A stretch of 64,000 nucleotides of DNA from a virus (IMGVR_UViG_3300007516_000014:5987-69986), one strand, 5' to 3'. Counted from the stretch's first letter, positions 314-62,092 are shown. Notes: generated by a model not told the origin, from the letters alone. A program made the numbers and translations.

Positions 314-1146
314 ACAAGACTGAGAGCATTCGGCGCGAGAACGTGTCCATCGACCTGCTCGTCGTCAATTCGATGAACCCGAACAAGATGAAGGCGCGCG
401 AGTTCGATCTGCTCGTCGACAATATCCAGCGCACCGGGTTGACCGACCCGATCCTTGTCCGCCCCATCGAAGACGGCAAGTATCGCATCGTTGGAGGCCA
501 TCATCGGTTCGATGCCGCGAAGTATCTTGACTTCAAGGAGGTGCCTTGCACGATCATCACGGATGTTGAGTTCGACGACGACGCGGAGAAGTTCCAGCTC
601 GTTCGTATGAACGCCATCCACGGCAAGCTCGACCCGGAAGCGTTCTTCAAGCTCTACAACTCGATGGCCGGCAAGTACCAGGACGACGTCTTGCAGGAGA
701 GCTTCGGCTTCGCGGACGACAAGGAGTTCCAACGCCTGATCGCCCAGATGTCCAAGGACATGCCGGACGACATGAAGAAGAAGTTCAAGGCAGCGGCGAA
801 GGAAGTGAAGACCATCGACGGCCTCGCCAAGCTGATGAACGAGCTGTACACGAAGTACGGCGATACACTCCCGTATGGCTTCATGGTCATCGATTTTGGC
901 GGCAAGGAGTCGATCTGGCTCCAGGTGACCAAGCCGACCATGAAGGCCGCCCACGCTTTCGGCGAGGTCTGCCGGGCCAACAAGCGCAGCATGGACGACA
1001 TGATGGGCGCGCTTATGCAATCAATTGCACTGCCGGAAGCGGCGGAGTTGCTGGCCTCGCTGCTCGCCATGACCCCGGAGATGGTAATTCCGGATAACGT
1101 GGGTGACCCGACCAAGAACAACATTCACGAAGCCAACCAGTTCTAG
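301..1146 (+). CDS. ParB/Srx-like N-terminal domain protein
   Basis: NPNKM...LVDNIQRTGLTDPILVR...YRIVGGHHRFDAA has the ParB GxxRxxA motif. Start moved to ATG 301, after the SD hairpin. Confidence 0.85.
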   Translation: MGSLDKTESIRRENVSIDLLVVNSMNPNKMKAREFDLLVDNIQRTGLTDPILVRPIEDGKYRIVGGHHRFDAAKYLDFKEVPCTIITDVEFDDDAEKFQLVRMNAIHGKLDPEAFFKLYNSMAGKYQDDVLQESFGFADDKEFQRLIAQMSKDMPDDMKKKFKAAAKEVKTIDGLAKLMNELYTKYGDTLPYGFMVIDFGGKESIWLQVTKPTMKAAHAFGEVCRANKRSMDDMMGALMQSIALPEAAELLASLLAMTPEMVIPDNVGDPTKNNIHEANQF

Positions 1147-1221
1147 AACAGGGTAGTCAGCAGCCTTCACGACTGCATGACCATCAACTACCCACGGACT
1201 TGAAGCCCAAGGAGGGGCGGG

Positions 1222-1830
1222 ATGGCTAAGAAGAAGCCGGCAATGTGGACGACCTTGGTACCGGTAGAGACGGTAGAGGAAATCCATCGTCAGTTGTTTG
1301 CCGGTATCGGCCCAGGAGAATTGGCCACGAAAGTCCAGTCCATGAGCCCGCCCATGTTCGCGGACAGGACTGCCCACACCGTTACCCAGTGGTTCAACGA
1401 CTACAGGAAAAAATCGGTCCTGCACGAGCAGACCAAGGCGCTGCTGGAAGCGGCGAAGTTCCGGGGCACATCGGCGCTCCGCAAGCGCGTCGATGTCGTG
1501 GGCGAGATGGAAGAACTGGTCGCCATCAATCGCGCCAGGCTGGCCAAAGGCCTGAACACAGAGGCGGGATCTCCGATCCCCCTGGATGCGGTGTCCAAGC
1601 TGGCCCTGGCGCTGGGCGTCACGCTGGAGCGTCTGGCGCACTTGTATCTGGAGACAGGGCTCATCCATCGGGTGCCCAAGCAGGTGAACGCCACGCTGAC
1701 CACGCTCATGGGCGGACGCCCGGTCTTCGAGTTCACTGAGGAGGAGTCGCGTCGCTTCTCCGAAGCCAGGATGCTGGAGCACGTCGCCGAGGTCATCGAC
1801 ATCGAGGAAGGTAACGATGTCGGCATTTAA
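1222..1830 (+). CDS. Probable terminase small subunit
   Basis: 202-aa helical-looking protein overlapping the start of the large terminase; positional call. Confidence 0.5.
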   Translation: MAKKKPAMWTTLVPVETVEEIHRQLFAGIGPGELATKVQSMSPPMFADRTAHTVTQWFNDYRKKSVLHEQTKALLEAAKFRGTSALRKRVDVVGEMEELVAINRARLAKGLNTEAGSPIPLDAVSKLALALGVTLERLAHLYLETGLIHRVPKQVNATLTTLMGGRPVFEFTEEESRRFSEARMLEHVAEVIDIEEGNDVGI

Positions 1831-3787
1831 GGCGGCGCGTGCCCTGATCGCCAAGGTGCCGATTAGCGGTGAAATCGTGCTGTCCCACGCTACGGCGACG
1901 AAGAACGAAGCGGGCGTCATCTCCTCAATCATGACGCCACGCCAGACGTATGACTATGTCATGCGAGCCGCGACCCATTTTCAGGCGCTCGCGAAGGAGC
2001 CGTCCGACAAGTACATCGTGTTCCCGGTCGACATCCAGACGTTCATCGAGAGCGAGAAGTTCCTGAACCGGCGGGACATTATCTATCCGAAGATCGTCAC
2101 CGAGCTGATGGAGCTGAACTCGGGCCGGTACACGGAAGCGGTGTTCACCGGAGCCATCGGCACAGGCAAGACCACGGCAGCCCTGCTGACCATGGCCTAC
2201 CAGCTGTATCTGGTTTCGTGCCTCAAGAACCCGCACGCGACGTTCACACCGCCGCTCGATCCGGCGTCGGAAATCCTGTTCGTGTTCCAGTCGCTGAACG
2301 CCCGAGTGGCCAAGCAGAACGACTACACGCGTTTTAGATCGATGATCGCCAACTCGCTGTACTTTGCGGAGCACTTCCCGTTCGACCAGGGCCTGGAGTC
2401 GGAGATGATTTTCCCGAACCGGATAGTCGTCCGCCCGCTCTCGGGTGGCGTGAATGCCGCCATCGGATCGAACGTCTACTCGGCCCTGATTGACGAGATT
2501 AACTTCATGCAGCGTGTAGAAAACTCCAAGCACGCAACGGACGGTGGCGTCTTCGACCAGGCGATGGAGATGTACAACGGCCTGTCTCGTCGTCGCGAGT
2601 CCCGCTTCATGTCCAACTACGGGAAGATGGACGGTATGGTGTGCCTGGTATCGTCCAAGCGATACCCAGGTGAGTTCACGGAGCGCAAGGCCAAGGAGGC
2701 CGCTCGGCAGATCGAGAAGACAGGGCGCACCGGAATTTTCATCTATGACCGGCGCGTGTGGGAGGTAAAGCCGGATGGCTCGTTCCGCCCTGAGCGCTTC
2801 AACCTGTTCCTCGGAGACCTGTCGCGCAAGCCGCACATCATGGCAGAGGACGAGGTCGTCGATGCGCGAGACCAGCACCTCGTATTAGCGGTGCCCATGG
2901 AGTTCAGGCATCAGTTCGAGAACGACATGCTGTCGGCCATTCGTGACGTAGCCGGGTCGTCTACCTTCGCCATGAACCCGTATATCATCAACCCGGAGAA
3001 GATTGCGGAGGGCTTCGGGACGTACCAGTCGATCCTATCGATCTCCGAGACCGACTTCGTGACGTCACGCCCGTCGATCTATCCGAACCGTATCCTCAAG
3101 CCCAACGAGCCGCGCTACGCGCACGTTGACTTGTCGGTGTCCGGTGACAGCTCGGGAGTGGCCATAGGCTACGTGGATGGCTTCACGTCGGTGCCTCGCG
3201 GCGACAACACGGCGGAGATGATGCCCAAGATCAACTTCGACATGATCCTGCGCGTCAAGCCTCCCCGCAATGGCGAGATCGAATTCGAAAGCATCCGAAC
3301 CCTGTTCTACAAGCTCAAGGAGCTTGGCATGAACCTGAAGTGGGTCAGCTTCGATACGTACCAGTCTCGCGACAGCATGCAGTTGCTGCGGCAGAAGGGC
3401 TTCGTGACAGGCTCGGTGTCCATGGACACGGACTCGACCGCGTACGACGTCATGAAGTCTGCGTTCTACGACGGGCGCGTGAAGGCACCGGAGCACGACC
3501 TGGCCCGCGCTGAGATCGTTCGCCTTGAGCGCGATCCGTTGACTGGTCTCATCGATCATCCACCCGACTGGTCGAAGGACTGTTCGGACGCGATGGCCGG
3601 TGTAGTGTTTGGGCTGACGTATCGACGTGAACTGTGGGTCCGCCACGGAGTGTCGATGCGGGATATGCTGGTGAAGCTGGCCGACCGCGAAGCGAAGAAG
3701 GACGCGAAGTCCGAGATCGCAGCAAAAGCTGGACTTAACCGTCATGTAAGCTACGCAGATGTTGTTGGCCACGGAGGGCCGTCATGA
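1817..3787 (+). CDS. terL: Terminase large subunit
   Basis: Walker A GAIGTGKT, Walker B ALIDEINF, RNase H-like nuclease motifs AHVDLS, SFDTYQS and KDCSDAMAG. Confidence 0.9.
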   Translation: MSAFKAARALIAKVPISGEIVLSHATATKNEAGVISSIMTPRQTYDYVMRAATHFQALAKEPSDKYIVFPVDIQTFIESEKFLNRRDIIYPKIVTELMELNSGRYTEAVFTGAIGTGKTTAALLTMAYQLYLVSCLKNPHATFTPPLDPASEILFVFQSLNARVAKQNDYTRFRSMIANSLYFAEHFPFDQGLESEMIFPNRIVVRPLSGGVNAAIGSNVYSALIDEINFMQRVENSKHATDGGVFDQAMEMYNGLSRRRESRFMSNYGKMDGMVCLVSSKRYPGEFTERKAKEAARQIEKTGRTGIFIYDRRVWEVKPDGSFRPERFNLFLGDLSRKPHIMAEDEVVDARDQHLVLAVPMEFRHQFENDMLSAIRDVAGSSTFAMNPYIINPEKIAEGFGTYQSILSISETDFVTSRPSIYPNRILKPNEPRYAHVDLSVSGDSSGVAIGYVDGFTSVPRGDNTAEMMPKINFDMILRVKPPRNGEIEFESIRTLFYKLKELGMNLKWVSFDTYQSRDSMQLLRQKGFVTGSVSMDTDSTAYDVMKSAFYDGRVKAPEHDLARAEIVRLERDPLTGLIDHPPDWSKDCSDAMAGVVFGLTYRRELWVRHGVSMRDMLVKLADREAKKDAKSEIAAKAGLNRHVSYADVVGHGGPS

Positions 3788-4707: not shown

Positions 4708-6780
4708 GTGAGCAAATTTCATTCTTTCGGACCGTTCATCCAGCCAGGCAATCTGGCGGTGGATGACAAGATGCACCTCGGTGGCAAGGGTGCTGGTCTG
4801 GTCCGCATGTCGTCCATGGGCATCCCGGTGCCTCCCGGCTTCACGATCCCCACTCCGTTCTGTGCGGCCTTCGAGAAGGCGGCGCTCGATAAGGGCGGCT
4901 TCATCGACAGCCTGATGAAGGATGTCCACGAGCACATGCAGGAAGTAGAGGCCGCGCTGGGCTATGCCCCGCTCGTCTCGGTCCGCTCGGGCGCACCGGT
5001 CTCGATGCCGGGCATGATGGACACGATCCTCAACGTCGGCCTGACGAACGCCACCATGGACGCCTGGAAGGCACGGATTGGCGAGCGAGCGGCGCTCGAC
5101 AGCTACCGCCGACTGATCCAGATGCTGGGCTGCACAGCCTACGGCGTCGACCACTCGCTGTTCGAAGCGGAGCTGGTTGCTGCTCGGACTGCCGCGAAAG
5201 TGGCCGCCGACAATCAGCTGAACCCCGTGCAACTGGTTGCACTGATCGCCAAGTACCTCACCATCTTCCACAAGCAGACCGGTTCGACGTTCCCCGACAC
5301 TGTCGAGGCGCAGCTTCACGCGTCCATCGGAGCGGTGTTCGCTTCGTGGCACAACGAGCGGGCCGTGATCTATCGCAAGATGAACGGGATCGATGCCTCG
5401 ATGGGCACTGCGGTGACCGTCCAGGCAATGGTGTTCGGCAACATGAATGACAACAGCGGGTCGGGCGTCCTGTTCTCCCGGAACCCGTCGACCGGCGTCA
5501 ACGAGCTGTACGGTGAGTTCCTGCCGAATGCTCAGGGCGAGGACGTGGTAGCCGGCATCCGGACGCCCCTCCAGCTGATCGACATGCAGCCGCTGTGGCC
5601 GGAAGTTCTCGACCAGCTGAACGATATCGCCTGCAAGCTCGAAGGCGAGTATGCGGATATGGTCGATCTGGAGTTCACGGTGCAGGACAAGGTTCTGTAT
5701 CTGCTCCAGTGCCGGCCCGGTAAGCGCGGTGCCATGGCCGCCTTCCGGATTGCGCGTGATCTGGAGCACGAGACGGTGATCGACAAGAAGACGGCGATCA
5801 GCCGCCTGTCCTCCAGGGAGTACAAACTGACCCGCCAGCCGGTGGTCGATCCCAAGTTCAAGGTTGCTCCCGTGGCGACCGGGCTGTTCGGTTCGACGGG
5901 TGTAGCGGTGGGCAAGCCGGTCTACACGGCAGCTGCTGCAATTGATTGCAAAGAACCCTGCATCCTGGTCACTCACGAGACCGACCCGGATGATGTCGGC
6001 GGAATGTACGCCGCCAAGGGTGTTCTGACCGCCACCGGTGGCCAGACCTCCCACGCTGCGGTGGTAGCGCGCGGAATGAACAAGCCCTGCGTGGTCGGCT
6101 GCATCGGGATCGTCGAGCTGATCAAGAAGTCTCAGGCGAAGATGGTGACCATCGACGGCGCGACGGGCCAGGTATGGCTCGACGTGGTTGTACCGGTTGT
6201 GGATAATTCGGCGGATGAAGCGGTGGCTGAAATCGTCAGCTGGATCGTCAAGTCCGACGTTAGCCCGGTCTGCAAAATACCTTCGAGCGGTCCGGCCATT
6301 GTGCAGGTCGCTGACTGGAAGATGGAGCAGCTCAACATAATGGCCCTTATGTCGCACCCGGACCCTTCGCAGCTCACCTTGGATTTCAGGGCGGCGACAC
6401 AAATCAGTTGCGAGGAAGACGAACCTCTGGCAAGCCTCTACGGAGACGTTGCGCCAATCGGTACACCTGATTTAAGGTGGCTGCTAAAGGCTATTGAGGG
6501 CCTGGGAAGTGCAATGTCTGGTCTCACCGTTATTGGCGCTCCGAGTTCCGAGAAGATGAAAAAGGCTGGCGTGATATTCCTGGCTCGTCCGGTATCGACT
6601 CTGGTCGATATGCTGGACGGGGGTGACATGGCTGTCAGCCCTGCCTTCTCGGCGGTGCTGGAGATGGCCGTGTATGACAAGATCGCTGGCCTGCTCAAGG
6701 ACGCGGGCAAGGAGATCAAAGCGACGGTGCCCGTCTATGGGTTGCCCGCTGAGTATCAGGTTTTCAAGGCATTGAGTTAG
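4708..6780 (+). CDS. PPDK-like dikinase (ATP-grasp plus phospho-His swivel domains, no PEP/pyruvate domain)
   Basis: LGGKGAGL, PVPPGFTI, VSVRSGAPVSMPGMMDTILNVG, QAMVFGN, NAQGEDVVAGIRTP, DLEFT, GGQTSHAAVVARG. The last ~190 aa do not resemble the PPDK TIM barrel. GTG 4708 follows the SD hairpin. Confidence 0.9.
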   Translation: MSKFHSFGPFIQPGNLAVDDKMHLGGKGAGLVRMSSMGIPVPPGFTIPTPFCAAFEKAALDKGGFIDSLMKDVHEHMQEVEAALGYAPLVSVRSGAPVSMPGMMDTILNVGLTNATMDAWKARIGERAALDSYRRLIQMLGCTAYGVDHSLFEAELVAARTAAKVAADNQLNPVQLVALIAKYLTIFHKQTGSTFPDTVEAQLHASIGAVFASWHNERAVIYRKMNGIDASMGTAVTVQAMVFGNMNDNSGSGVLFSRNPSTGVNELYGEFLPNAQGEDVVAGIRTPLQLIDMQPLWPEVLDQLNDIACKLEGEYADMVDLEFTVQDKVLYLLQCRPGKRGAMAAFRIARDLEHETVIDKKTAISRLSSREYKLTRQPVVDPKFKVAPVATGLFGSTGVAVGKPVYTAAAAIDCKEPCILVTHETDPDDVGGMYAAKGVLTATGGQTSHAAVVARGMNKPCVVGCIGIVELIKKSQAKMVTIDGATGQVWLDVVVPVVDNSADEAVAEIVSWIVKSDVSPVCKIPSSGPAIVQVADWKMEQLNIMALMSHPDPSQLTLDFRAATQISCEEDEPLASLYGDVAPIGTPDLRWLLKAIEGLGSAMSGLTVIGAPSSEKMKKAGVIFLARPVSTLVDMLDGGDMAVSPAFSAVLEMAVYDKIAGLLKDAGKEIKATVPVYGLPAEYQVFKALS

Positions 6781-6789
6781 GAGCTTCAG

Positions 6790-7068
6790 ATGGGTTTGGT
6801 TCTCACCATTCGACAGGGCGAAGACTTCTTCGTCGACAACGATCAGTTCTTTTTGGAGAAGATCATATCGGAAGACGAAGTCCGCATCTTCCGCCCCAAG
6901 GATGGGAAGAAGATCACGGCGTCGACCAAAGACATGACCGATATTCAAGACGACGTGAGCGTCCAAGTCGCGGATCGCATCACGAGCAAGGCAGCCCGTC
7001 TGGTTATCGAGGCACCACGGACGAAGCTGATACTGACTGGTGTTAAATTTCGTACACCGCGAACATAG
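6790..7068 (+). CDS. CsrA/RsmA-like RNA-binding protein (apparently two fused CsrA units)
   Basis: LVLTIRQGEDFFV resembles CsrA LILTRRVGETLMI; DDVSVQV...ARLVIEAPRTKLIL resembles DEVTVTV...VRIGVNAPKEVSVH. Confidence 0.65.
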   Translation: MGLVLTIRQGEDFFVDNDQFFLEKIISEDEVRIFRPKDGKKITASTKDMTDIQDDVSVQVADRITSKAARLVIEAPRTKLILTGVKFRTPRT

Positions 7069-7108
7069 GGAGACATCGCGGCTAACCCTGAAAGACTGGG
7101 ACTGATAC

Positions 7109-7408
7109 ATGGCTAGGACATACACGGTATCACCCGCAGTTTTGGAAAGGGCTGTGGAGCTGGGGCTTTATGGGGAGACTGCTGAAGCCCGCATCTTGGA
7201 GATGGCGCGGCGATCAGCCAGGTTCACTCACCCCGATGCCAATCGGCGCTTCAGGCAATACATCATGTTCCTGGAAGCCGATGGTATGGTGACCATGCTG
7301 GACATTATGTCCGGGGAGGAAGCCGACTATTACGACAACCGTTCGTACGCCGAACGCAAAGCCGAGGATGATCCCGGCGAGGCCGAGGTGATCAAGAAGA
7401 AGAGATAG
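7109..7408 (+). CDS. Hypothetical protein
   Basis: 99-aa ORF filling the gap; no motif recognised. Confidence 0.65.
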   Translation: MARTYTVSPAVLERAVELGLYGETAEARILEMARRSARFTHPDANRRFRQYIMFLEADGMVTMLDIMSGEEADYYDNRSYAERKAEDDPGEAEVIKKKR

Positions 7409-7465
7409 CCATTTGCAACAAGCCTGGCCTCAAGCCACAGTAGCTGCCTAACCAAGGAGGGTTTT

Positions 7466-7975
7466 GTGAACAAACACTATGTACCATCGCGTCCCCAGCC
7501 TGTCGGCTTCATGCCGATCCCGGTCGGCCATGGGCGAATGTTCGCCATCGAAGGTGGACCGTTCATCGCGTTCGACCGCAACACGGCGAAGGACGCGTTC
7601 GCCTTGTGCCTCGAAGCCCGGTCAGGAAACGTGGCGACGGCCAGCGTGGCGCTCGATGTGCCGGACTTCAGCACGCCCGATCCCAAGGGCCTCGACAGCG
7701 CGCTCTCCAAGATGGTCGACGCGCTCTACAAGGGCCGCCCGGCGTACATCGGCTGCATGGCAGGGCAGGGCCGAACAGGCCTTGCGATGGCCTGCCTCGC
7801 CCGCGAGTTCGGCGTCATCGAGCCGATCAAGCACGTCCGCCGTTACTACACGTCCCATGCGGTGGAGACGTCCAATCAGGCAGCCTTCGTCAAGGACACC
7901 CCGCTGCCCAAGACCAGGTGGCGCATCCGGATCAACCGTCTCCGCGCTTCTTTGCCCTGGCTCTGGATTTCTTAA
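7466..7975 (+). CDS. Protein-tyrosine/dual-specificity (CX5R) phosphatase
   Basis: VPDF general-acid loop, YIGCMAGQGRTG P-loop, AVETSNQ. Confidence 0.85.
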   Translation: MNKHYVPSRPQPVGFMPIPVGHGRMFAIEGGPFIAFDRNTAKDAFALCLEARSGNVATASVALDVPDFSTPDPKGLDSALSKMVDALYKGRPAYIGCMAGQGRTGLAMACLAREFGVIEPIKHVRRYYTSHAVETSNQAAFVKDTPLPKTRWRIRINRLRASLPWLWIS

Positions 7976-8034
7976 TTGACACTGGTTGGCTCCTAGCCAC
8001 AGTCGAAGACTGAAACGAGACCAAGGAGGGTCCC

Positions 8035-9102
8035 ATGCAACTCGCCCCGACCGACACGCTGGCCTATTTCAAAACGAGAGCGCTGACGGCAGCGCGCTCG
8101 ATGACCGGCGTGCCGTGTGCCACCGTAGCCCAGAAGATTAAATGGGCGACGGACAGTATGGGAGGAGTCCATCCCGAGACCGAGGCGCTGTGGTTCTACA
8201 TGATGAACCACGGCATGTCGGAGATTAGCAAGAATTACGCTGATCTGGAGCCGCTGCCCGACGACGTGCTCAAGTTCGTCAAACACTACTATGACGAGGG
8301 GGCGAAGAAGGCCCTGCGAGCGATGTCGTACCTGATGCTGATCTGCGTGCGCGAGGCTCGCCATCTGAAGAACAAGACGGAGATGAAGTCCGCCATCGTG
8401 GCGTCATCGTCCTTGGAGATGTGGCAGTATTTGGGCCTCGTCCCGGACGACGCCATGATGGCCCAGGAGATGTTCGCCAGCAGCCCTCCCAAGTGCGATG
8501 TGGCGACCTTCTGCAAGGGGCTGGCCTTCCAGTTCTACAACGGTTCGTATAGCAACAGCTACGGCGGCGCGAAGTGGGGTGTAGTCGCAGACTGCCTCAA
8601 GAAGTTCGTGACCGGCGAGGTGACTGCCGAGATTATGCTCGATACGATCTGGACTCTATGCCATAACGGAGGCCCTATATTCAACAAGGGCGTTTTGTAT
8701 CAGCACCACGATAAGGCTGCCCTGACGCGCATTCTCGACGTCCAGCGCGGTGGTCAGATACCGCAGATGATCGCCACGTACGACAAGGTCGAGCATTACC
8801 TGTTGCCCGACATGATCGTACGGAACAACTGGCTGCGGTCGAGGTTCCCGGCGACGACAACGGGTGATCTCGATTGGGAAATCATTCAGAAACTCGGCGC
8901 GGTCGGCGATTATAAGGCCGAGATCCATAACGCCAAGATGATGACGCCTGAGTACAAGGCGCAGCTGGCTGCGGAGAAGGTTGCTGCTCAGGCCGCTGCG
9001 ATCAAGCATGCGGCGGACCAGGCGAAGAAATTCGCCAACATGTATCAAGTCACCACGGACGTATGGGTGGACAAGTTCCAGCCAGAGCGGGAGGCAGTGT
9101 GA
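8035..9102 (+). CDS. Hypothetical protein
   Basis: 355 aa with SD hairpin; conserved-looking YGGAKW and LCHNGGPIFNKG segments. Confidence 0.8.
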   Translation: MQLAPTDTLAYFKTRALTAARSMTGVPCATVAQKIKWATDSMGGVHPETEALWFYMMNHGMSEISKNYADLEPLPDDVLKFVKHYYDEGAKKALRAMSYLMLICVREARHLKNKTEMKSAIVASSSLEMWQYLGLVPDDAMMAQEMFASSPPKCDVATFCKGLAFQFYNGSYSNSYGGAKWGVVADCLKKFVTGEVTAEIMLDTIWTLCHNGGPIFNKGVLYQHHDKAALTRILDVQRGGQIPQMIATYDKVEHYLLPDMIVRNNWLRSRFPATTTGDLDWEIIQKLGAVGDYKAEIHNAKMMTPEYKAQLAAEKVAAQAAAIKHAADQAKKFANMYQVTTDVWVDKFQPEREAV

Positions 9103-43767: not shown

Positions 43768-43770
43768 GTC

Positions 43771-47588: not shown

Positions 47589-47645
47589 TTCCTATTGCCC
47601 CAGGTACGGACATGACTATGCTCTCCGAACTGCCAAGGAGGGCAC

Positions 47646-48830: not shown

Positions 48831-48895
48831 TCTTTGTCAATACCAGCCCTATCGTCCGTCCCGCTTCCAACAACTCATGGCCAAGGAGGGCCACT

Positions 48896-49444: not shown

Positions 49445-49445
49445 G

Positions 49446-53298: not shown

Positions 53299-53355
53299 TC
53301 TCTTGCATCATGCCTGTCCAAGCGTAGAACACGTTACCAATCAAGGAGGATTGCG

Positions 53356-53880: not shown

Positions 53881-53900
53881 TTACTGCAATCAATTGCACA

Positions 53901-54392
53901 ATGATCAACGAGGATCGAGAAATGTTGAACCGCTATCGGATCACGCTCGCCAGCATTTACAGCGACGACCAGCTCGCCCTGATGCTGACCCGCGCCGGCT
54001 TTGCCGTCACCGGAGTCGAGACGGTGGGCACCGAAGCCCCTGCGGAAAAGATCGCGGAAAAAACTGCGGCCCAGCCCAAGAGCATGGTGAAGGCCGCACT
54101 GGCGCTGGCAGAAGATCGCCGCCGCAAGTACACCGCCTCGCAGATGCACACGCCGGAAGCCAAGGCCAAGGCTGTCGTCAGTCGTATGAAGGCAAGCGCT
54201 CGACGGTCGAACATAGTGATCCGTCGTATCGCGGAAATCCTGGTCGAGAAGCAAGACCTGGATATGCCGGCCACGCACGTCACGTCCATGATCAACTCGC
54301 GTCGCGCGGACAACAAGCGCCTGTCTGTCGTGAGAGTCCGTGGCTTCATGGATGCCGCTCGCAGCTTGGTGACGCAGCCCTCCATGATCTAA
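53901..54392 (+). CDS. Basic hypothetical protein
   Basis: ATG 1 nt after a palindrome copy; coupled to primase (TAATG). Confidence 0.6.
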   Translation: MINEDREMLNRYRITLASIYSDDQLALMLTRAGFAVTGVETVGTEAPAEKIAEKTAAQPKSMVKAALALAEDRRRKYTASQMHTPEAKAKAVVSRMKASARRSNIVIRRIAEILVEKQDLDMPATHVTSMINSRRADNKRLSVVRVRGFMDAARSLVTQPSMI

Positions 54393-55399
54393 TGGACCTG
54401 CAAACCAGCAAGTCCTTTCTTCGTTGCCTGGGAGTGGCGGGTTACGATGATCGACGCAACGGGTGGGTGACGTGCGCCTGCCCGTTGGCCCCGTGGCGTC
54501 ATCCGGACGGCTCGGGCAAGAGCGCATTTGGACTGAAGCTCGGTGCAGGGCGCGTGTTCGTGAAGTGCTTCTCGTGCGACTATCATGGCACGCCCCTGGA
54601 CCTGTTGTATGAGCTGCGCGACACGAACAAGGCGTCGCCCAGCGGCAAGGTCTACGACTTCGGCAAGGCCATGGGCATCCTGAATGCAAATCCGGCCGAT
54701 CTGGTTGAGAAGGTCGACTCGCTCGACGAGCTGGCCTTCAACGCCAAGCCCACGTTCGTGTACCCCGAAGACTGGTTGGCCGAGTTCGAACCGGCCTACA
54801 GCGGCGATCAGGTTCATCCGTATCTGGTTAGTCGGCAGATGCCGTACGAAGTCGCTCGTGATCTGGACATCAGATACGACAACGTCGCGAGCCGTGTGTG
54901 CTTCCCCATCCGGGACTACAACGGCCAGCTTCGAGGTCTTCATGGCAGGTCAGTCTGGCCGCATGTCGAGTTGAAGTACCTCATGTACACGATTGCCGAT
55001 CCCGAAAGACCGGGCCAGAAGCACTGCAATCCCGACGTGTGGTTGGGCGAGGCGTGGGTAGACCCGGAGCAGCCCGTGGTGATAGCCGAGTCGGTATTCG
55101 ACCTGGCTCGCGTGTACCAGGTCTACCGCAACGTCATGTGTCCGCTGATGGCATCGCTCAACGAGGCCAAGATGAAGCGGCTGCTCGGTATCAGCCGGCT
55201 CGTGACCATGTTCGACGCAGATAACGCGGGCAAGATAGCCCGTGATAAACTCAGGAATAGGTTTCCCGCGATAGAGATGCACAATGTAGTACTGCCCGCA
55301 GGCTTCAAAGACCCAGGGAGCATGGCGGTGGAAGACGTGGCTGCATTACTCGACCAGTACGTCATTTTAGACCCTATTTTATTGCACAACGCGGGGTAG
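54392..55399 (+). CDS. DNA primase (Zn finger + TOPRIM)
   Basis: CPL...H...CFSC, FPIRD, IAESVFD, FDADNAG, KDPG. Confidence 0.88.
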   Translation: MDLQTSKSFLRCLGVAGYDDRRNGWVTCACPLAPWRHPDGSGKSAFGLKLGAGRVFVKCFSCDYHGTPLDLLYELRDTNKASPSGKVYDFGKAMGILNANPADLVEKVDSLDELAFNAKPTFVYPEDWLAEFEPAYSGDQVHPYLVSRQMPYEVARDLDIRYDNVASRVCFPIRDYNGQLRGLHGRSVWPHVELKYLMYTIADPERPGQKHCNPDVWLGEAWVDPEQPVVIAESVFDLARVYQVYRNVMCPLMASLNEAKMKRLLGISRLVTMFDADNAGKIARDKLRNRFPAIEMHNVVLPAGFKDPGSMAVEDVAALLDQYVILDPILLHNAG

Positions 55400-55473
55400 C
55401 GGAGTATAAAGGATATGTTCTGCGCACCCTAGTTCACCGCGCTGTCCACGGAAGGTCATGGAGGACCATCACA

Positions 55474-56307
55474 ATGGCTATCGTCGTCAAGAAGCCCATC
55501 GCTGCCAAGCTCGAAGCTCCGGCAGTCGCCACGCCACCCGCTGCAAATGGGGACGTCAAATCGTCTACGCCCAGCTGGATGATGCAGGGCAAGGCCACCG
55601 TAGCGGCGTACGCGGCCGAGAAGGCCAAGTCCGAGGTCGCCTACGAAAACTCCAAGAAGCTGCACCGTTTCCGGCTGAAGGTCGGTGAGGCGCGCACGAT
55701 CACTTTCATCGACGGCTTTCTGGATGACGACGGCATGCTCGCCGCTCGCTCGTACTACGAGCACACTGTCCCGCTCGGAGCGCGGTACGAAAACTTCGTC
55801 TGCCTGGCAGCCAACCACGTTCCCGGTCAGCCCCAGGAGCCGTGTCCCATCTGCGAGGCGTCGAGCGATAACAGACCCTCGCTCGTGACGGTCCTGACCG
55901 TGCTCGATCACACGCCCTACACGATCCAGAAGGGTCCGAAGCAGGGCCAGGTCATCCCGTTCCAGCGCAAGCTGTTCGTGGCCAAGGGTGGCACGATGGA
56001 GAAGCTGCGTTACAAGGCCAACAAGATGGGCGGCCTCGCAGGTTGGACGTTCTCGGCCGCTCGCATCGGTGACAACAAGTCGCCGGCTGCCGGTAACGAG
56101 TTCGACCGTGACGAGGAGCAGGCCCGCGCGTCCACGGAGGAGCTGATCGCTCAGTTCGCCGAGGACGGGAAGGTCGCCGACTACGAGGCCGAGATCGTCA
56201 TGCTGTCCGCCGCCAAGCTGATCGAGCTGGGCGCGGGCAAGGCTCCTGCCGGTCCCGGTTACGGCGGCAGCAAGTTCGACTCGAACAAGATGGGCGAACA
56301 GATCTAG
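55474..56307 (+). CDS. Probable single-stranded DNA-binding protein
   Basis: RFRLKVGEARTITFID, YEH, C...CPIC, RKLFVAK; replication context. Confidence 0.65.
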   Translation: MAIVVKKPIAAKLEAPAVATPPAANGDVKSSTPSWMMQGKATVAAYAAEKAKSEVAYENSKKLHRFRLKVGEARTITFIDGFLDDDGMLAARSYYEHTVPLGARYENFVCLAANHVPGQPQEPCPICEASSDNRPSLVTVLTVLDHTPYTIQKGPKQGQVIPFQRKLFVAKGGTMEKLRYKANKMGGLAGWTFSAARIGDNKSPAAGNEFDRDEEQARASTEELIAQFAEDGKVADYEAEIVMLSAAKLIELGAGKAPAGPGYGGSKFDSNKMGEQI

Positions 56308-56397
56308 TTCGCTTGCAGGGCGCGGCTGTGCAGTTGTGCAATTGATTGCACAGCCGTCCTCACCAAGGAGGGTGATCTGGTTAGTATAAATTCGCTG

Positions 56398-58782
56398 ATG
56401 ATGAGTGATGCCCCGGACAGCTACGGGGCGACCGCGTCGTACAAATACTCCAACGCGCTGGCCAAGAAGTTCTCGGCCCTGTCGCGCTACGGCGACCCCT
56501 ACATGCTCTATCGCAAGACGGGCGACGTCATTCATCTGCCGCGTGCCGTATGCCCGGTCGGGGTTAACGACAATCGCAGCGCAGGACAGGACGTAAAGTT
56601 CGACTGCAAGTTCACACCGCGCACCGCAGACCAGACGCAGTGGGTGCATAATTCCTCGGGCTTCCTGCTGGCCGGTCTGTCCGGTATCAGCCAAGCCTAT
56701 ACCGGCTTCGGCAAATGTTTAGCAAAAGGCACGCAGGTGCTTATGCACGATGGCCGCCGCGTAAATGTAGAGAATGTCGAAGTAGGAGACTATCTGATGG
56801 GGCCTGACGGAGAGCGCCGTACTGTCCTGTCCACAACTACGGGCGTAGGTCCCATGTACCGCGTCAGCCCGACGATGGGCGAGGATTTCGTGTGTAACGA
56901 CGTGCACGTATTGTCGCTCAAAAAAACTAATGTGGGCGACAATCCAACGCTTCAACGCTGCTCCGATATGGTTAACGTTCCATTGGACGAGTACCTGGGA
57001 TGGCCGTCTTGGAAGAAGCACATATACAAATTGTGGCGCACCGGAGTGGAGTGGGAGCCTAGAAATCTAGCGCCTATGATCGACCCGTACTTCATGGGGG
57101 TCCTGCTCGGCGATGGCAGCACGAAAGGTTCGATTGCCGTAACGACGGCTGACGACGAGATCGTTGCCGAGGTGCATAGGCAGGCGGCCCTGTGGGGTTT
57201 GAAGGTTCGCAAAGAGGATCAGGAAGACAGCAAGTCCAGCACTTACTATCTGTCTCAGTTGGAGGGCCACGCTGTAGGCGGTAACCGATTGCGTACCGCC
57301 GTACAGTCTCTAGGACTTGGAGCCGCCGCATGTGGCGACAAATTCATACCGTACAGGTATTTGACGGGCTCTCGCGAAGAACGCTTGCAGTTGTTAGCAG
57401 GACTGATCGACACGGATGGCACACATATCCGTACTTGTTTTGACTTCACAGTTAAGTCGAGGCGCCTGGCCGATGACGTAGCGTTCCTGGCCCGTAGTCT
57501 GGGTATGGCAGCTACCAGACAGACCAGGACCGGAGGCAAAGTTGCTCCGAACACCACATACCACCGCGTCGTCATATCCGGCAGCACTCACCAGGTGCCA
57601 ACTCGGCTAGTGCATAAGAAGGCACCAGTGCGCGTGCAGAAGAAAGACGTGCTGCGAACGGGGTTCAAAGTAGAGGCGTTAGGCGCCGGTGATTATTATG
57701 GCTTCGCGCTGGACGGCGACCACCTGTTTCTATTGGGCGACTTCACGGTGACGCACAACACCGCGTGCTCGATGCCCGTCATCGCGGCGGTCGCCAAGAA
57801 GACCCTGATCGTCTGCACCAAGGAAGACTTGATGCTGGATGACAAGCAGTGGCTTGGCTCGCTCAAGACCTTCCTGAACCTGACCGACAAGGACATCGGC
57901 GTCGTTCGCCAGGATCGCTGCGATGTGGCGGGTAAGAAGGTGGTCATCGGCCTCGTTCATTCGCTCTCCATCGAAGGCCGTTATCCGCCCGGTACGTTTG
58001 ACGATTTCGGCCTGATCGTGTGGGATGAAGTCCATCGTGTAGCGGCGGACACGTTCAGCAACACGGCATTTCTGTTCCGGGCCAAGCTGCGATGGGGCCT
58101 GTCCGCCACCGTGGAGCGGTCGGACGGTAAGGAGATCATCCTCCACGCCAACATAGGGCCGACTCGCGTCAAGTCGCAGCCGCTCGTCATCAAGCCGAAG
58201 GTGCTGCACTTCACGTCCAACTGGCACTGTCCGCGCGTGTTGCGGGTCGATCCCAACACCGGGGAGCAGAAGGTGGTGCGCCTGCCGCATTCGCCGGGGC
58301 GCGTGACGCATATCATCCAGTCGTTGGCCAAGGACATTTCCCGCAACGACCTGATCTGCAAGGCGACGATGATGGCGTACCAGAAGAAGCGCAGCATCGT
58401 GGTGTTCACCGAGCTGCTCGATCACATCGAGACGCTCCGGATGGCCTTGAAGAACATGGGCGTGCCATGGGGAGACATGGGTGTCTATGTCGGGGGTATG
58501 AAGGCCAAGGCCAGGGACGAGGCAACGGTCAAGCCTATCACCCTGACCACCTACCGCATGACATCAGAAGGGACGAACTGTCCTTGGTGGTCATGCGCGG
58601 TCTTCGCCACGCCACGAGGAGACGTCGTGCAGATCGCCGGTCGTGTCCTGCGTGAATACCCCGACAAGCCGCAGCCTATCCTCATCGACATAACGGACCT
58701 GGATAGCCCGGTGTTTGCCGGTTACTCGAAGTCTCGACGCAACTGGTATCGCTCAGTCGGAGCTGACCAGGTTCAGCTTTGA
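56398..58782 (+). CDS. Superfamily 2 helicase (intein-containing); start possibly CTG 56377
   Basis: TGFGK|T, DEVH, GLSAT, SEG, QIAGRVLR. Confidence 0.9.
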   Translation: MMSDAPDSYGATASYKYSNALAKKFSALSRYGDPYMLYRKTGDVIHLPRAVCPVGVNDNRSAGQDVKFDCKFTPRTADQTQWVHNSSGFLLAGLSGISQAYTGFGKCLAKGTQVLMHDGRRVNVENVEVGDYLMGPDGERRTVLSTTTGVGPMYRVSPTMGEDFVCNDVHVLSLKKTNVGDNPTLQRCSDMVNVPLDEYLGWPSWKKHIYKLWRTGVEWEPRNLAPMIDPYFMGVLLGDGSTKGSIAVTTADDEIVAEVHRQAALWGLKVRKEDQEDSKSSTYYLSQLEGHAVGGNRLRTAVQSLGLGAAACGDKFIPYRYLTGSREERLQLLAGLIDTDGTHIRTCFDFTVKSRRLADDVAFLARSLGMAATRQTRTGGKVAPNTTYHRVVISGSTHQVPTRLVHKKAPVRVQKKDVLRTGFKVEALGAGDYYGFALDGDHLFLLGDFTVTHNTACSMPVIAAVAKKTLIVCTKEDLMLDDKQWLGSLKTFLNLTDKDIGVVRQDRCDVAGKKVVIGLVHSLSIEGRYPPGTFDDFGLIVWDEVHRVAADTFSNTAFLFRAKLRWGLSATVERSDGKEIILHANIGPTRVKSQPLVIKPKVLHFTSNWHCPRVLRVDPNTGEQKVVRLPHSPGRVTHIIQSLAKDISRNDLICKATMMAYQKKRSIVVFTELLDHIETLRMALKNMGVPWGDMGVYVGGMKAKARDEATVKPITLTTYRMTSEGTNCPWWSCAVFATPRGDVVQIAGRVLREYPDKPQPILIDITDLDSPVFAGYSKSRRNWYRSVGADQVQL
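56716..57759 (+). mobile_element. Class 1 intein with LAGLIDADG endonuclease, 348 aa
   Basis: CLAKGTQVLMHDG...GVLLGDG...LAGLIDTDG...YYGF...VTHN|T. Confidence 0.95.
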
Positions 58783-58843
58783 ATTCAAATTGCCTTCTGC
58801 TCGCAACCGAGTAGAAGGAACTGTTCGCATCAAGGAGGATGGC

Positions 58844-59251
58844 ATGGAACCCGATGGTATCGATCAGCTGAAAGAGTATCTGACCAAGCCCGAAGTCGAT
58901 GTCGACTTCGTGCATGCCACGGCGACCCACGCGGCCAAGAAGAAGCCCGTCAGCATCGTCAAGAAGCAGGCAACCGCCAAGCTCACGGTCAAGAAGATCG
59001 ACGGCACCGAGGAGACGGTGGAGGAAGCCGTGGGTAAGCCGCAGTTCTTCGACTCGCCGCCCTGCACCGTGTCCATCGGCGCTCGTCTGAAGATCGGCAT
59101 GCCCAACTACAGCAGCGCCGAGTGCAGCGTGTCCTTGTCCGTGCCGTGCTCCGCCACCGAGATCGATGACGTGGCCGACTTCGCCGGGAACTGGGTCGAC
59201 AAGCGCATGGCAGACGCCGCCGAGAAGCTCAACGCAGCGAAGGGAAGCTGA
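58844..59251 (+). CDS. Hypothetical protein
   Basis: Hairpin CATC-AAGGAG-GATG places the start at 58844. Confidence 0.75.
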   Translation: MEPDGIDQLKEYLTKPEVDVDFVHATATHAAKKKPVSIVKKQATAKLTVKKIDGTEETVEEAVGKPQFFDSPPCTVSIGARLKIGMPNYSSAECSVSLSVPCSATEIDDVADFAGNWVDKRMADAAEKLNAAKGS

Positions 59252-60309
59252 TGGCTACGGTCCAGGCCGTCCTCAACGCCTTCAAGAAGAACCTTGGCGC
59301 TTCGATTGGCGACTACGGGACGAAGTTGCACGAGACCGAACGTATTCCGACAGGCATCTTCGCCTTCGATCTGGCATCGGGTGGCGGATTTCCGCGTGGG
59401 AAAGTGGTCGAGGTGTTTGGTCCGGAGTCGTCTGGCAAGACCAACCTGATGCTCAAGACCGTCGCGGCGCATCAGATGCTGTACCCCGATGAGACCTGCG
59501 TGTTCATCGATCTGGAGCACGCACTCGACGGCCAGTGGGCCAAACTCCTGGGCGTCGACACCGACAGACTGCTCTGGATGAAGCCCGAGTACGTCGAACA
59601 GACCATCGACATGGTTGAGGCGTTCCTGGCTACGTCGGATTGTGGCTTGATCGTGCTGGACAGTCTGGCCGCCATGATCACGTTCAACGAGGCCAATTCA
59701 GAGGCCTCCAAAGCGGCGGTAGGCCTGGTGTCAGGTCCGGTCGGCAAGCTGGTTCGCAAGATCACGCTCCGTCTGAACCAGGCACAGAAGGAGGGCCGCT
59801 TCCCGACCGTCCTGATGGTCAATCAGGTCCGGTTCGCCATCGGTGGCCCGCTCCATGCTGATCCCGAGAAGACGCCCGGAGGCAACGCGCCAAAGTTCGC
59901 AGCGGCGATGCGTGTCCGGACCTACGGCAAGAACATCATGGAGTCGAAGATTTCGACGACCATGCCGGTTCTGAAGGAGACGCAGTTCATCATCCGCAAA
60001 TGGAAGGTGCCCATTCTGTCGGCCAACGGCATGTACCAGATGGCCGCGATCCCACACGCCGGTCTGAACGTGGGCGAATGCTCCGACGTCAACACGGTGA
60101 TCGGCTACATGAAGAAGTGTGGCGTCCTGATCAAAGGCGACAAGCCAGGCGTGTGGAACTGTCTCGGAGATACGTACAAGACGCTGGAGCCGATCAAGGA
60201 GAAGCTCGTGGTCGACAAGGTATGGGGCCTCGCCGTCCGGGCCAACGTCATCAAGACCATGCTCGCAGGTGGTGAGATCGCGCCGCAGGACGAGGGAGAA
60301 GCCGATTGA
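59251..60309 (+). CDS. recA: RecA-like recombinase
   Basis: IPTG, EVFGPESSGKT, FIDLEHALD, VLDSLAA, NQVR, TPGGNA.KF. Confidence 0.93.
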   Translation: MATVQAVLNAFKKNLGASIGDYGTKLHETERIPTGIFAFDLASGGGFPRGKVVEVFGPESSGKTNLMLKTVAAHQMLYPDETCVFIDLEHALDGQWAKLLGVDTDRLLWMKPEYVEQTIDMVEAFLATSDCGLIVLDSLAAMITFNEANSEASKAAVGLVSGPVGKLVRKITLRLNQAQKEGRFPTVLMVNQVRFAIGGPLHADPEKTPGGNAPKFAAAMRVRTYGKNIMESKISTTMPVLKETQFIIRKWKVPILSANGMYQMAAIPHAGLNVGECSDVNTVIGYMKKCGVLIKGDKPGVWNCLGDTYKTLEPIKEKLVVDKVWGLAVRANVIKTMLAGGEIAPQDEGEAD

Positions 60310-60662
60310 GCAACCCATACCTGGATAGAAAGCCGCGCATCGGCGATCACGGTCGCAAAAGCGAGAAGCGGGTGGCGAAGAAGTTCGGAGCCTCGATGGT
60401 TTCGGCCTCCGGTGCCACCCGCGCCAAAGGAGACATGACGCTCGGTCAATTCCTGATCGAGAGCAAGTCCACGAGCCACAACAGCATGAGTGTGCAATTC
60501 GCATGGTTAGCAAAGATCGAAAAAGAGGCGCTGGCCGTGGGGAAGACACCGGCGCTGACCGTATCGTTCCTTCTGCCGGGAGGATCGGACGTTCCCGGCG
60601 GGCGCTGGGTGATGATGCCGGAGGACACGTTCCAAGAACTGGTAAATTCCGAGGGCGAGTAG
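60306..60662 (+). CDS. PD-(D/E)xK Holliday junction resolvase-like nuclease
   Basis: E..VAK, SGA...KGD, LIESKST. Confidence 0.75.
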   Translation: MSNPYLDRKPRIGDHGRKSEKRVAKKFGASMVSASGATRAKGDMTLGQFLIESKSTSHNSMSVQFAWLAKIEKEALAVGKTPALTVSFLLPGGSDVPGGRWVMMPEDTFQELVNSEGE

Positions 60663-60883
60663 AAGGCCGCGCCCTCGATCCGCTCGTCCGAGCCATTCTG
60701 ATCGAGATCGATGACGCCGGCATGTCCATGGAGTCGGTCTGTCACAAGGCAGGCCTGGGCAAAGGCACGATAGGAATGTGGGCCAGGGCCAAGCGGGTGC
60801 CAAACATCGGCAACATGCGAGCGGTGCTCGGGGCGCTGGGCTTCATGCTCGTTGCCATAAAGCCAGCGAAGGAGATTGGTTGA
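60659..60883 (+). CDS. XRE/Cro-like HTH protein (start not resolved)
   Basis: GMSMESVCHKAGLGKGTIGMW...PNIGNMRAVLGALG; no canonical start codon near the apparent N-terminus. Confidence 0.65.
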   Translation, partial: VEGRALDPLVRAILIEIDDAGMSMESVCHKAGLGKGTIGMWARAKRVPNIGNMRAVLGALGFMLVAIKPAKEIG

Positions 60884-61791
60884 TGGCCGGGTTCCAGTTC
60901 ATCACGAACCAGATGAAGAAGCATCAAGCCAAGGGCACGAAGTACGCTCTACACAAGATGCTGCGCGGTTGGCGGCCTGGTCGCGCGCACAAAAGCGTCC
61001 ACGCTTCAGCGGTGACCAAAGGCGGCACTGGCGAGTTCTGCGCCCGCGAGTACGCGATCAGGGACAAGGAGCCGCACAAGGTCCCCGACGAGTTCCTGGA
61101 TACGTCACATAGGCTCACGTTTGCCATCGGTCACTACGTACAGGACCAGGTGATCAACTGGCTGTCAGATGGCAATTACGCCATCACCAACTGGGTGTGC
61201 CAGTCGTGCAAGACGTTGCATGAGCGGTGCAAGCGCCCGTCAAAATGCCACGCGTGTGGCTGCGGAGCGTTCAAGGCCGACGAGATCAGGCTGATAAGCG
61301 CGGTGTCCGGTATTGGCGGTGGCATCGACGTGTTTGCCCAGCTGGGCGAGCCGAAGCTCCGTATCGTCGAAATCAAGACGATGGCGCCCGATGAGTTCAA
61401 GAAGCTGGTAGCGCCGCTAGCGGAGCACCGTCTCCGGACCAATCTGTACATGAGGATAGCCGCCGAGAGTGATGATCCGTGGAAGACGCGTATCAACGTC
61501 GATCAGGCGTACGTCCTGTACTGTTCGAAGGGTGGCTTCGGGACGCTCGATACGAACCTCAAGGAGATGGGGATCGACGACAAGTTCTCGCCCTTCAAGG
61601 AGTTCCTGATCGACCGCGACGACACGCAGACCGAGATGCTTCACCAGCGGGCGGTACGGCTGAAGGAATTCCGGGAGAAGTCGAAAGGTATGCCTGCGGG
61701 GCTTTGCCCGACCGCGTTTACCAAGCGGGCACAAAGCTGTATCGTCACGAGTGCTTGTTTCTCAGGGAAGTATCCAGCCAAGGAGGACTGA
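60883..61791 (+). CDS. Cas4/RecB-like exonuclease with Zn-ribbon insert
   Basis: HAS...CAR, GGID, VEIKT, LYM, C-terminal C...C...C; CQSC..C..CHAC insert. Confidence 0.8.
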   Translation: MAGFQFITNQMKKHQAKGTKYALHKMLRGWRPGRAHKSVHASAVTKGGTGEFCAREYAIRDKEPHKVPDEFLDTSHRLTFAIGHYVQDQVINWLSDGNYAITNWVCQSCKTLHERCKRPSKCHACGCGAFKADEIRLISAVSGIGGGIDVFAQLGEPKLRIVEIKTMAPDEFKKLVAPLAEHRLRTNLYMRIAAESDDPWKTRINVDQAYVLYCSKGGFGTLDTNLKEMGIDDKFSPFKEFLIDRDDTQTEMLHQRAVRLKEFREKSKGMPAGLCPTAFTKRAQSCIVTSACFSGKYPAKED

Positions 61792-61792
61792 C

Positions 61793-62050
61793 ATGAAGAT
61801 TATTACGTTCCATACCGAGAACGGTAAGCGTATCGCCACCGAGTCATAAGTTCCGGACGATTACTTCGCTAATCACGCGTATTTCGACGATGAGACGCGC
61901 GAGTACGTGTTCGAAGACGGCACTCGCATGAAGGGGATTAGGATGCGGTACGCAGCAGATTTGAGTTTTCGATGTTCGTTGTTCATTGTGTCGGTGGGGT
62001 CCAGCCTGATCTTCGTCGCGTGGTTGGTGAAGGCGCTCCTCGTAAACTAG
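61793..62050 (+). pseudogene. Small ORF interrupted by one in-frame TAA (61847)
   Basis: SD hairpin and ATG; MKIITFHTENGKRIATES*VPDDYF... continues in frame to TAG 62050. Confidence 0.4.
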
Positions 62051-62092
62051 TTTTTGTGCAATCAGTTGCACAGCCTGTCCAAGGAGGGACGC

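Follow-up and report, generated by a model that had tools for sequence, protein, structure and literature searches.

The window analysed here, the whole of a 64,000-nucleotide stretch of viral DNA, comprises bases 5987-69986 of a 69,986-bp contig (IMGVR_UViG_3300007516_000014) that is 74% complete and whose genes all lie on a single strand. A 16-bp palindrome recurs along it, within genes and between them, and this array is the subject of the present analysis. Copies were located by scanning the window with the pattern GTGCAATCARTTGCAC, allowing up to two mismatches. The 25 rows obtained represent 21 distinct places, the first at 1015 and the last at 62071, identical in number and end coordinates to those reported in an earlier sequence-only reading of the same DNA. 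One hundred dinucleotide-preserving shuffles of the window contained a mean of 0.04 sites and a maximum of 1. The division into 12 coding and nine intergenic copies also held on recounting. The complete contig contains 24 sites; in 17 of them the gene strand carries the central CA, and in seven the opposite strand does. The palindrome array is real, selected and family-wide. The window sites, in window coordinates, are as follows.

Site 1, 1015-1030, + strand: ATGCAATCAATTGCAC, in the ParB-like gene, encoding MQSIA.
Site 2, 5227-5242, - strand: in the PPDK-like dikinase gene, encoding VQLVA.
Site 3, 5936-5951, - strand: in the dikinase gene, encoding AAIDCK; the 14-bp core is exact and the outer bases deviate.
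Site 4, 9624-9639, - strand: in the phosphatase-like gene 9099-10040, encoding VQLIA; a substitution within a conserved helix.
Site 5, 12009-12024, - strand: in the DNA polymerase I gene, encoding AIEC; one mismatch.
Site 6, 14030-14045, + strand: intergenic, before the portal operon.
Site 7, 16133-16148, + strand: in the non-conserved C-terminal tail of the portal protein, encoding VQSVAQ.
Site 8, 18529-18544, + strand: in the MuF-like gene, encoding VQSIAK.
Site 9, 21355-21370, + strand: intergenic, 5' of the prohead protease gene.
Site 10, 24275-24290, + strand: in the open reading frame (ORF) 24113-24361, encoding VQSVAQ.
Site 11, 28743-28758, + strand: intergenic, about 23 nt 5' of the ATG at 28782.
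Site 12, 32853-32868, + strand: in the tape measure gene, encoding VQSVAQ.
Site 13, 33588-33603, - strand: at the 5' end of the distal tail gene, encoding PAIDCT.
Site 14, 38019-38034, + strand: in the final codons of the gene 37311-38045, followed by a Shine-Dalgarno sequence (AGGTGG) and the ATG of the next gene at 38045.
Site 15, 44670-44685, + strand: intergenic, immediately 3' of the stop codon of the gene 43771-44667; one mismatch.
Site 16, 46540-46555, + strand: intergenic, first member of a pair 81 bp apart.
Site 17, 46621-46636, + strand: intergenic, 20 nt 5' of the ATG at 46657 (block of DUF4406, dNMP kinase and AAA ATPase genes).
Site 18, 50325-50340, + strand: in the gene 49446-50444, encoding VQSIAQ.
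Site 19, 53884-53899, + strand: at the junction between the gene 53356-53880 and the primase gene; one mismatch.
Site 20, 56336-56351, - strand: intergenic, between the gene 55474-56307 and the helicase gene.
Site 21, 62056-62071, + strand: intergenic, 21 nt 5' of the ATG at 62093.

The widest site-free gap, from 38034 to 44670, agrees with the absence of copies noted earlier in the J and fibre block. It had also been stated that coding copies impose the same peptide on unrelated proteins. The peptides listed were correct: VQS[VI]A is encoded at the sites in the portal, MuF-like, 24113, tape measure, tail K and 49446 genes, and AI[DE]C at those in the dikinase, DNA polymerase I and distal tail genes, with MQSIA (ParB-like), VQLVA (dikinase) and VQLIA (9099-10040) at the remaining coding copies. 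These peptides nevertheless reflect a bias in reading frame and not a rule, since in the related phage Summit 15 of the 22 coding copies use the V-Q-[SL]-I-A frame and seven use other frames. The bias is best read as the least harmful encoding of the site.

Contigs from four sequencing runs were compared over positions 44001-64000 and differed at 14 positions in 20 kb, none within the seven sites there, which is far too few for a test of conservation. Contigs of several runs contain two joints, 48464/59332 and 61254/63294, that skip 10,867 and 2,039 bases; the shorter side of these joints spans only 22 letters, and cross-matching or short repeats in common are a more probable cause than real deletion.

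The array in related phages

When the first 20 kb were compared with the DNA of cultured phages at near identity, matches were limited to two short stretches of the dikinase gene; relatives were found by protein comparison. The motif was compared in the contig, in Summit and in nine uncultured relatives (G001-G008 and G010), with one more, G009, covered by pattern scan only. The sequence-only reading had proposed a motif scan of the full genome and its relatives; beside the 24 sites of the contig, the core TGCAA-N4-TTGCA occurs 9-38 times per genome in 14 related phages of about 100 kb. Among cultured phages the counts were 31 each for Summit, DLP5 and DLP3, 17 for RHph_TM16 and 9 for RcZahn (0 for a reversed-pattern control), and the uncultured relatives carry 15-38 copies each. 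Exact-arm counts of 19-32 per genome compare with about 0.1 expected under a first-order Markov model.

By protein comparison, G004 is nearest to the contig, followed by Summit and G001. More distant carriers include G002 and G005, with 41% capsid and 30% polymerase identity to the contig, and G003, with 23% and 22%. The cultured members infect Stenotrophomonas maltophilia (DLP3, DLP5 and Summit), Rhodobacter capsulatus (RcZahn) and Rhizobium (RHph_TM16). Since the motif is kept down to 23% capsid identity and across hosts of two proteobacterial classes, these sequences suggest that the reader of the sites is probably encoded by the phages and not by the host. In G010 no motif was found by pattern, and a de novo search for dyads of the form 5+N+5 yielded only a tandem coding repeat, so that the array is either absent from this genome or missed by that search. 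The repeat, at about 38.9-39.1 kb of this relative of 40% GC, is long and of hexanucleotide type (ACGGTG/ACGGTT units).

The sequence-only reading had described one 16-bp consensus. The palindromic arms bear this out, but the conserved part consists only of two arms of 5-6 bp, (G)TGCAA and TTGCA(C), flanking a 4-bp centre, with the outer G and C often present. The centre is YCAR in the window phage and differs in relatives (TCGA, TTAA; [CT]AAA in G008 and G009). A literature search found no occurrence of the 14-mer core string. The available part of the Summit genome announcement makes no mention of a palindrome array, the word "palindrom" is absent from the available text of the RcZahn paper (PMC8601537), and both "palindrom" and "promoter" are absent from that of the DLP3 paper (PMC7326821); supplements may hold relevant tables.

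Spacing, placement and half-sites

The palindromes had been described as tiling the genome about every 3 kb, essential genes included, and this was confirmed. Spacing was more even than random in nine of ten genomes (P from <0.001 to 0.03, under a null model in which gene junctions supplied the positions of intergenic sites). In these nine genomes the gaps had a coefficient of variation of 0.47-0.65, compared with about 0.95 for random placement, and median gaps were 2.8-5.6 kb. For G004, whose motif is looser and which has 67 sites, the median gap was 1.3 kb and the spacing P value 0.07.

Synonymous positions show that the DNA sequence itself is under selection. The ParB-like gene was aligned in 29 orthologues of at least 45% identity, a few of them near-duplicates, and a relaxed form of the motif was present at the codons of site 1 in 23 of them. 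At these codons CAA was used in 17 of 26 cases against 12% elsewhere in the same genes, ATT in 23 of 25 against 18%, and GCA in 24 of 30 against 9%. The rare codons at the ParB-like and dikinase sites are identical in the window phage and Summit, while neighbouring synonymous positions differ. At the place of site 3, where Summit has identical codons, G004 carries a site with a flipped centre that turns AIDC into AVNC, the arms being kept save for one base. The MuF-like orthologue of Summit has ALQSIAR at the place aligned with site 8, corresponding to the Summit site at 2213, and the Summit protease gene, like that preceded by site 9, has a site immediately upstream. The sequence-only reading had made its proposal depend in part on conservation of coding copies at synonymous positions in related phages, and such conservation was found. 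In aligned orthologues the in-gene copies at the ParB-like, dikinase, phosphatase and DNA polymerase I sites appear as substitutions without gaps, which rules out a mobile 18-bp insertion as their source.

Sites are about 4-5-fold enriched between genes. With the published annotation of Summit, nine of 31 sites are intergenic against 6.3% of non-coding DNA (P = 9e-5), and with crude gene calls for seven genomes, intergenic DNA makes up 8-19% of the sequence but contains 31-67% of the sites. In many intergenic copies the upstream stop codon abuts the first base and the Shine-Dalgarno sequence begins 0-3 nt past the last. Among 155 non-coding sites in 10 genomes, 35 have a start codon 6-16 nt 3' of the 16-mer, with the Shine-Dalgarno sequence 0-3 nt after it. 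Nineteen of these 35 have an upstream stop codon at most 8 nt away, the gap being made up of the motif and the ribosome site, and the adjacency can therefore be explained by the fitting of 16 bp into a compact gene junction, with which it is as compatible as with a function in translation. A sigma-70 scan of 44-64 kb gave one match where 5.6 were expected, and none adjoined a site; no consistent pattern of promoter geometry was found around the window sites. Three intergenic palindromes are followed, at 46637-46656, 56352-56380 and 62072-62092, by AGC and a short hairpin with AAGGAGG in its loop, before a start codon. These agree with the Shine-Dalgarno hairpins that the sequence-only reading had listed as a separate item.

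The copies at gene junctions could be viewed as recombination linkers, in which the shared 14-16-mer would provide short homology for the exchange of modules. The identical sequence does occur at gene junctions of many mosaic relatives, the phages encode RecA, an exonuclease and RuvC, and two indels flanked by repeats are described in the available text on the Cluster O mycobacteriophages (PMC4351075). Linkers are nonetheless a very improbable explanation: a length of 14-16 bp is short for homologous exchange, and the even spacing, the in-gene copies kept at synonymous positions and the genome-specific variants would all be left unexplained.

Several relatives carry such variants of the half-sites: TGCAG/CTGCA in G006 (14 exact copies), TGAAA/TTGCA in G007 (22 copies) and TGCAA/CTGCA in G004. 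The inner base of the half-site in G004 is A or G, and the three resulting classes number 22, 38 and 7, as expected if the two halves are independent. The third base in G007 is C or A, with classes of 6, 22 and 4, so that most sites would carry a mismatch in the middle of a stem. No excess of complementary half-site pairs and no base-pair covariation was found in G004 or G007. Since the halves assort independently or with an excess of hetero pairs, each half-site appears to be read separately, as duplex DNA, and it is highly probable that a protein reads the sites in double-stranded form.

These variants also bear on the possibility that the palindromes act as RNA or single-stranded DNA hairpins beside ribosome-binding sites, serving as operators of translation, in mRNA stabilisation or in processing. 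The 35 sites located just before a start codon would suit such a role, as would the transcription of every copy that follows from all genes being on one strand. The absence of compensatory pairing makes it the most improbable of the explanations considered, with the sites of G007 being mostly TGCAA + TGAAA halves and those of G004 mostly hetero. More than half of the sites, moreover, lie within genes and remote from starts, and 19 of the 35 are accounted for by compact junctions. A true RNA element is present for comparison in G001 (L119-L124, reverse-complemented). This second palindrome, TTCAAAGGATTGAA, occurs in 10 copies (for example at 54, 16351, 30513 and 42428 in flipped coordinates) and forms a hairpin with a Shine-Dalgarno sequence (AGGA) in its loop, ending 0-4 nt before an ATG. 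Its arms are perfectly complementary in all 10 copies, unlike those of the main motif.

Candidate readers of the sites

Two products encoded in the window had been proposed as the protein that binds the palindromes.

301-1146, + strand: ParB/Srx-fold protein P0001, 281 amino acids; Pfam ParB_N (PF02195), E 5.8e-12, above the cut-off; phrog_26387.
60503-60883, + strand: ORF with a weak match to the helix-turn-helix (HTH) family HTH_3 (XRE-like), Pfam 21.9 bits against a cut-off of 23.

The XRE-like ORF was rejected as reader, its score being under the Pfam cut-off and no orthologue being present in any of 10 relatives. The sequence-only reading had otherwise proposed sites for a dimeric protein that organises, partitions, silences or marks the whole genome. 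The family-wide motif, even spacing, synonymous conservation and lack of covariation support sites of this general kind, but partition in the ParABS sense is unsupported. A ParA-type ATPase (PF13614) was found in none of five relatives (Summit, G002, G004, G005 and G007) with the single ParA model used; controls for the search were positive in 14 of 14 genomes. Two of five relatives (G004 and G007) encode a tyrosine integrase. Together these results indicate that lifestyle varies and that classical partition is unlikely.

The mechanism that we tentatively favour may be stated as follows. The palindromes would serve as double-stranded landing sites for a protein with two-fold symmetry, whose gene most probably resides in these phages themselves, and selection would keep about one site per 3 kb across a unidirectionally transcribed genome. 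Sites would be placed where they cost least, either between a stop codon and the next Shine-Dalgarno sequence or in tolerant codons (mostly V-Q-[S/L]-I-A). The ParB/Srx-fold protein, in which an N-terminal domain of ParB type is connected by a helical segment to a C-terminal dimerisation domain, would bind each site and spread or slide over the kilobases between sites, thereby coating the whole chromosome. Through this coat transcription would be regulated, or the DNA organised or protected, in the manner of KorB (RK2), Noc (Bacillus) or BisD (ICEclc). That a ParB-like protein loads at the array and coats the genome is a serious possibility, although we hold it short of an even chance; the identity of the reader taken by itself is at best equally tentative, and that the outcome is spreading with silencing or organisation is somewhat more tentative still. 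The fullest form of the proposal is rather unlikely in all its parts: a non-canonical ParB/Srx protein, with an invariant GHHR box and no ParA or KorA partner, would load at about 30 evenly spaced palindromes, coat a 100-kb chromosome and change together with its site, as a counterpart of KorB, Noc or BisD kept in phages of Stenotrophomonas, Rhizobium and Rhodobacter, and the coat would set a silent (plasmid or prophage) against an expressed state, or shield the DNA from host systems.

Several results favour the ParB-like protein. It has 430 homologues at E <= 1e-5, of which the 120 listed are 49-75% identical. The fold of its N-terminal domain (residues 5-108) matches PadC (Z 14.1), KorB (Z 12.3) and pNOB8 ParB (Z 11.7); KorB, ParB and Noc are the top Foldseek matches, and by sequence the protein matches best the Noc structure 7nfu (E 4.8e-10). 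The C-terminal region (186-281) is predicted to form a homodimer with a score of 0.58, the best control scoring 0.00; the score mark applied is reached by 20 of 30 solved homodimers and one of 23 monomers. Runs of this prediction agree in at least 87% of contacts, with pLDDT of at least 73. In G007, G008 and G009 the copy of the motif within the ParB-like gene agrees completely with the variant of the respective genome; in G006 the agreement is limited to one arm. ParB_N genes also lie upstream of the terminase gene in all four near-complete relatives tested (G002, G003, G004 and G005).

Other observations weigh against this assignment. Box II of the protein reads GHHRFDA where Noc has GERRWRA (the GERRxRA type), and G66-H67-H68-R69 is invariant in 42 aligned homologues. 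The N-terminal domain additionally matches sulfiredoxin and serine kinases. Given this box and these fold matches, the ligand of the protein may be a different nucleotide, or the protein may act as an enzyme of the sulfiredoxin or serine-kinase type and not as a CTP clamp. The region corresponding to the ParB HTH is poorly modelled (pLDDT about 50-65) and acidic; fold searches with the whole-protein model recognised no DNA-binding fold in residues 110-281, and the profile alignment with Noc extends to residue 170 without matching residues in the HTH region. Presence of the gene and of the motif also do not coincide throughout. G010 has a 40% identical ParB-like orthologue but no motif; in G002 and G005 the motif is present, but BLAST does not detect their ParB_N proteins as orthologues and the genes for these contain no copy; and G001, a genome only 66% complete, gave no ParB_N match. 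Conserved copies are also kept in the dikinase and MuF-like genes, and the ParB-like gene is thus not alone in containing one. Because large phages commonly have ParB_N genes, the co-occurrence of these with the motif is weak evidence. Finally, a quarter of the window phage's genome is missing and could encode the true reader. For the claim that the ParB-like protein reads the sites, the retention of its gene's copy in most orthologues and the predicted dimer thus speak in favour, and the atypical box II and unrecognised HTH against.

The same array of double-stranded sites could instead be read by another small dimeric DNA-binding protein, acting as a global roadblock or repressor, like the stoperator repressor of Cluster A phages, or as a timing regulator. 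The enrichment of sites at gene junctions and operon heads fits such a role, as does the absence of a recognisable HTH in the ParB-like protein. The central orientation is biased with transcription in some genomes (17:7 in the contig; TCAA:TTGA 21:1 among exact-arm sites in G001), although it is weakly so in G005 (18:13) and unbiased in G002 (11:11). There are also temperate relatives, namely G004 and G007 with their integrases and DLP5, isolated as a phagemid according to the available text of the DLP3 paper (PMC7326821). A similar guess was made by the Cluster O authors for their 17-bp repeats in the part of their paper available (PMC4351075). The gene for such a protein could be located in the quarter of the genome that is missing, or its sequence could have diverged too far to be traced. 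We nevertheless consider a reader of this kind rather unlikely. Immunity specificities usually diverge fast, whereas the same arms are found here at 23-41% capsid identity and in two host classes, and control promoter by promoter would not require even spacing.

No conserved HTH protein was identified to fill this role. A LacI-type HTH (PF00356) was found in none of five genomes at E <= 1, the XRE-like ORF is not conserved, and ten further small ORFs had no match to a DNA-binding family. Presumed resemblances of the motif to sigma-54, IHF and LacI/GalR-type operator sites were dropped, for wrong spacing or a missing reader. A 92-amino-acid ORF at 6790-7068 has a weak CsrA match (21.6 bits, cut-off 27) and weak orthologues in G004, G006 and G008.

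The position of the ParB-like gene raises a further possibility, that the sites are recognised by the small terminase, or by the ParB-like protein together with terminase, and allow headful packaging from many entry points. The gene is immediately followed by those of the putative small and large terminases in the window phage, Summit, G002, G004 and G005, a conserved copy of the motif lies about 200 bp 5' of the putative small-terminase gene, and RcZahn is reported in the available text of its description to be circularly permuted (PMC8601537). Packaging sites are improbable even so: headful phages need one pac site, about 30 evenly spaced sites would not be predicted, and the putative small terminase (1222-1830) has no family match.

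Other genes in and near the window were also noted. A dikinase-like gene and two phosphatase-like genes lie at 4708-10040, and a DUF4406/deoxyribosyltransferase-like gene and a dNMP kinase gene at 46657-47588. Just upstream of the window is a glycosyltransferase-like gene whose product is 29-33% identical to a Summit glycosyltransferase. As judged from these gene assignments, the set hints at modified DNA bases. A conserved 333-amino-acid protein (phrog_17202, no Pfam match) is encoded at 62931-63932; a palindrome lies just 5' of its orthologue in four of seven genomes, and its positional counterpart in RHph_TM16 is annotated as a putative member of the RNase E/G family.

As cultured members exist, the function of the array is directly testable. 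The experimental handles comprise the 14-bp core, its natural variants, in-gene copies that can be recoded and a named candidate reader. DLP3 has been proposed for therapy, and a genome-wide silencing or maintenance system would bear on the persistence of such a phage in its hosts.

Comparison with known systems

By layout, the closest known arrays are the repeats of the Cluster O mycobacteriophages (Corndog and others), with inverted arms, a variable spacer and tens of copies, a likeness of kind and not of homology. The part of the description available (PMC4351075) reports a 17-bp palindrome, TGTTCGG-N3-CCGAACA, in about 34 copies per 70 kb, lying between genes, near gene starts and within genes, with a central asymmetry lacking clear orientation. 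According to the same text, its authors predicted a dimeric DNA-binding protein and doubted a control of transcription initiation, and the phages also encode glycosyltransferases, an AAA ATPase and a protein with a ParB-like domain. The Cluster O repeats differ in sequence, host phylum and phage lineage and come from five near-identical genomes (PMC4351075), whereas the present array spans 23-58% capsid identity and two host classes and has genome-specific variants. Even spacing and synonymous-site tests are reported here and are not in the available part of the Cluster O paper. Dispersed palindromes have been known in that cluster since 2015, with no function assigned to them in that text (PMC4351075), and the same puzzle is now presented by culturable phages on tractable hosts.

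The stoperators of Cluster A mycobacteriophages are described, in the text available (PMC9283540), as tens of repressor sites distributed over the genome, many in short intergenic gaps, that silence the prophage. Each is an asymmetric site bound by a monomer and aligned with the direction of transcription, as far as the available parts of two papers state (PMC9283540, PMC4351075). In contrast, the arms described here have dyad symmetry and the orientation bias is absent in some genomes, as illustrated by the 11:11 ratio in G002, in keeping with the distinction from stoperators already drawn in the sequence-only reading.

Noc, like the reader proposed here, is a ParB-family protein without a ParA partner that has many dispersed palindromes, although its nucleotide box differs. 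It acts in membrane tethering and in division. To our knowledge, neither the Noc nor the BisD system is known from a phage. BisD spreads over about 50 kb of ICEclc along the direction of transcription, according to the available text (PMC13768133).

By mechanism, the closest system is KorB of RK2, in which 16-bp palindromes are likewise dispersed over a mobile genome, as are the 21 of the window and the 24 of the contig. KorB is a dimeric clamp of the ParB family that loads at the 16-bp OB, slides up to 1.5 kb and silences promoters, as described in the available text (PMC11790492). This range is half the site spacing observed here, and by analogy a KorB-like clamp could reach most bases from sites 3 kb apart. 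If the ParB-like protein does read the sites, gene control by a sliding clamp as in RK2 would extend to whole phage chromosomes, and this could account for the frequency of partner-less ParB genes in large phages. The candidate differs from KorB in its GHHRFDA box II, in which the CTP-binding motif is not conserved, in the absence of a recognised HTH, in the lack of a ParA-type ATPase in the five relatives searched and in having no known KorA- or TrbA-like partner, at which no search was aimed. It shares with KorB the ParB-type N-terminal domain and a C-terminus predicted to dimerise. Compared with the OB sites of RK2, the palindromes described here are 2-3 times more numerous, evenly spaced and often located within genes, and their carrier is a phage and not a plasmid.

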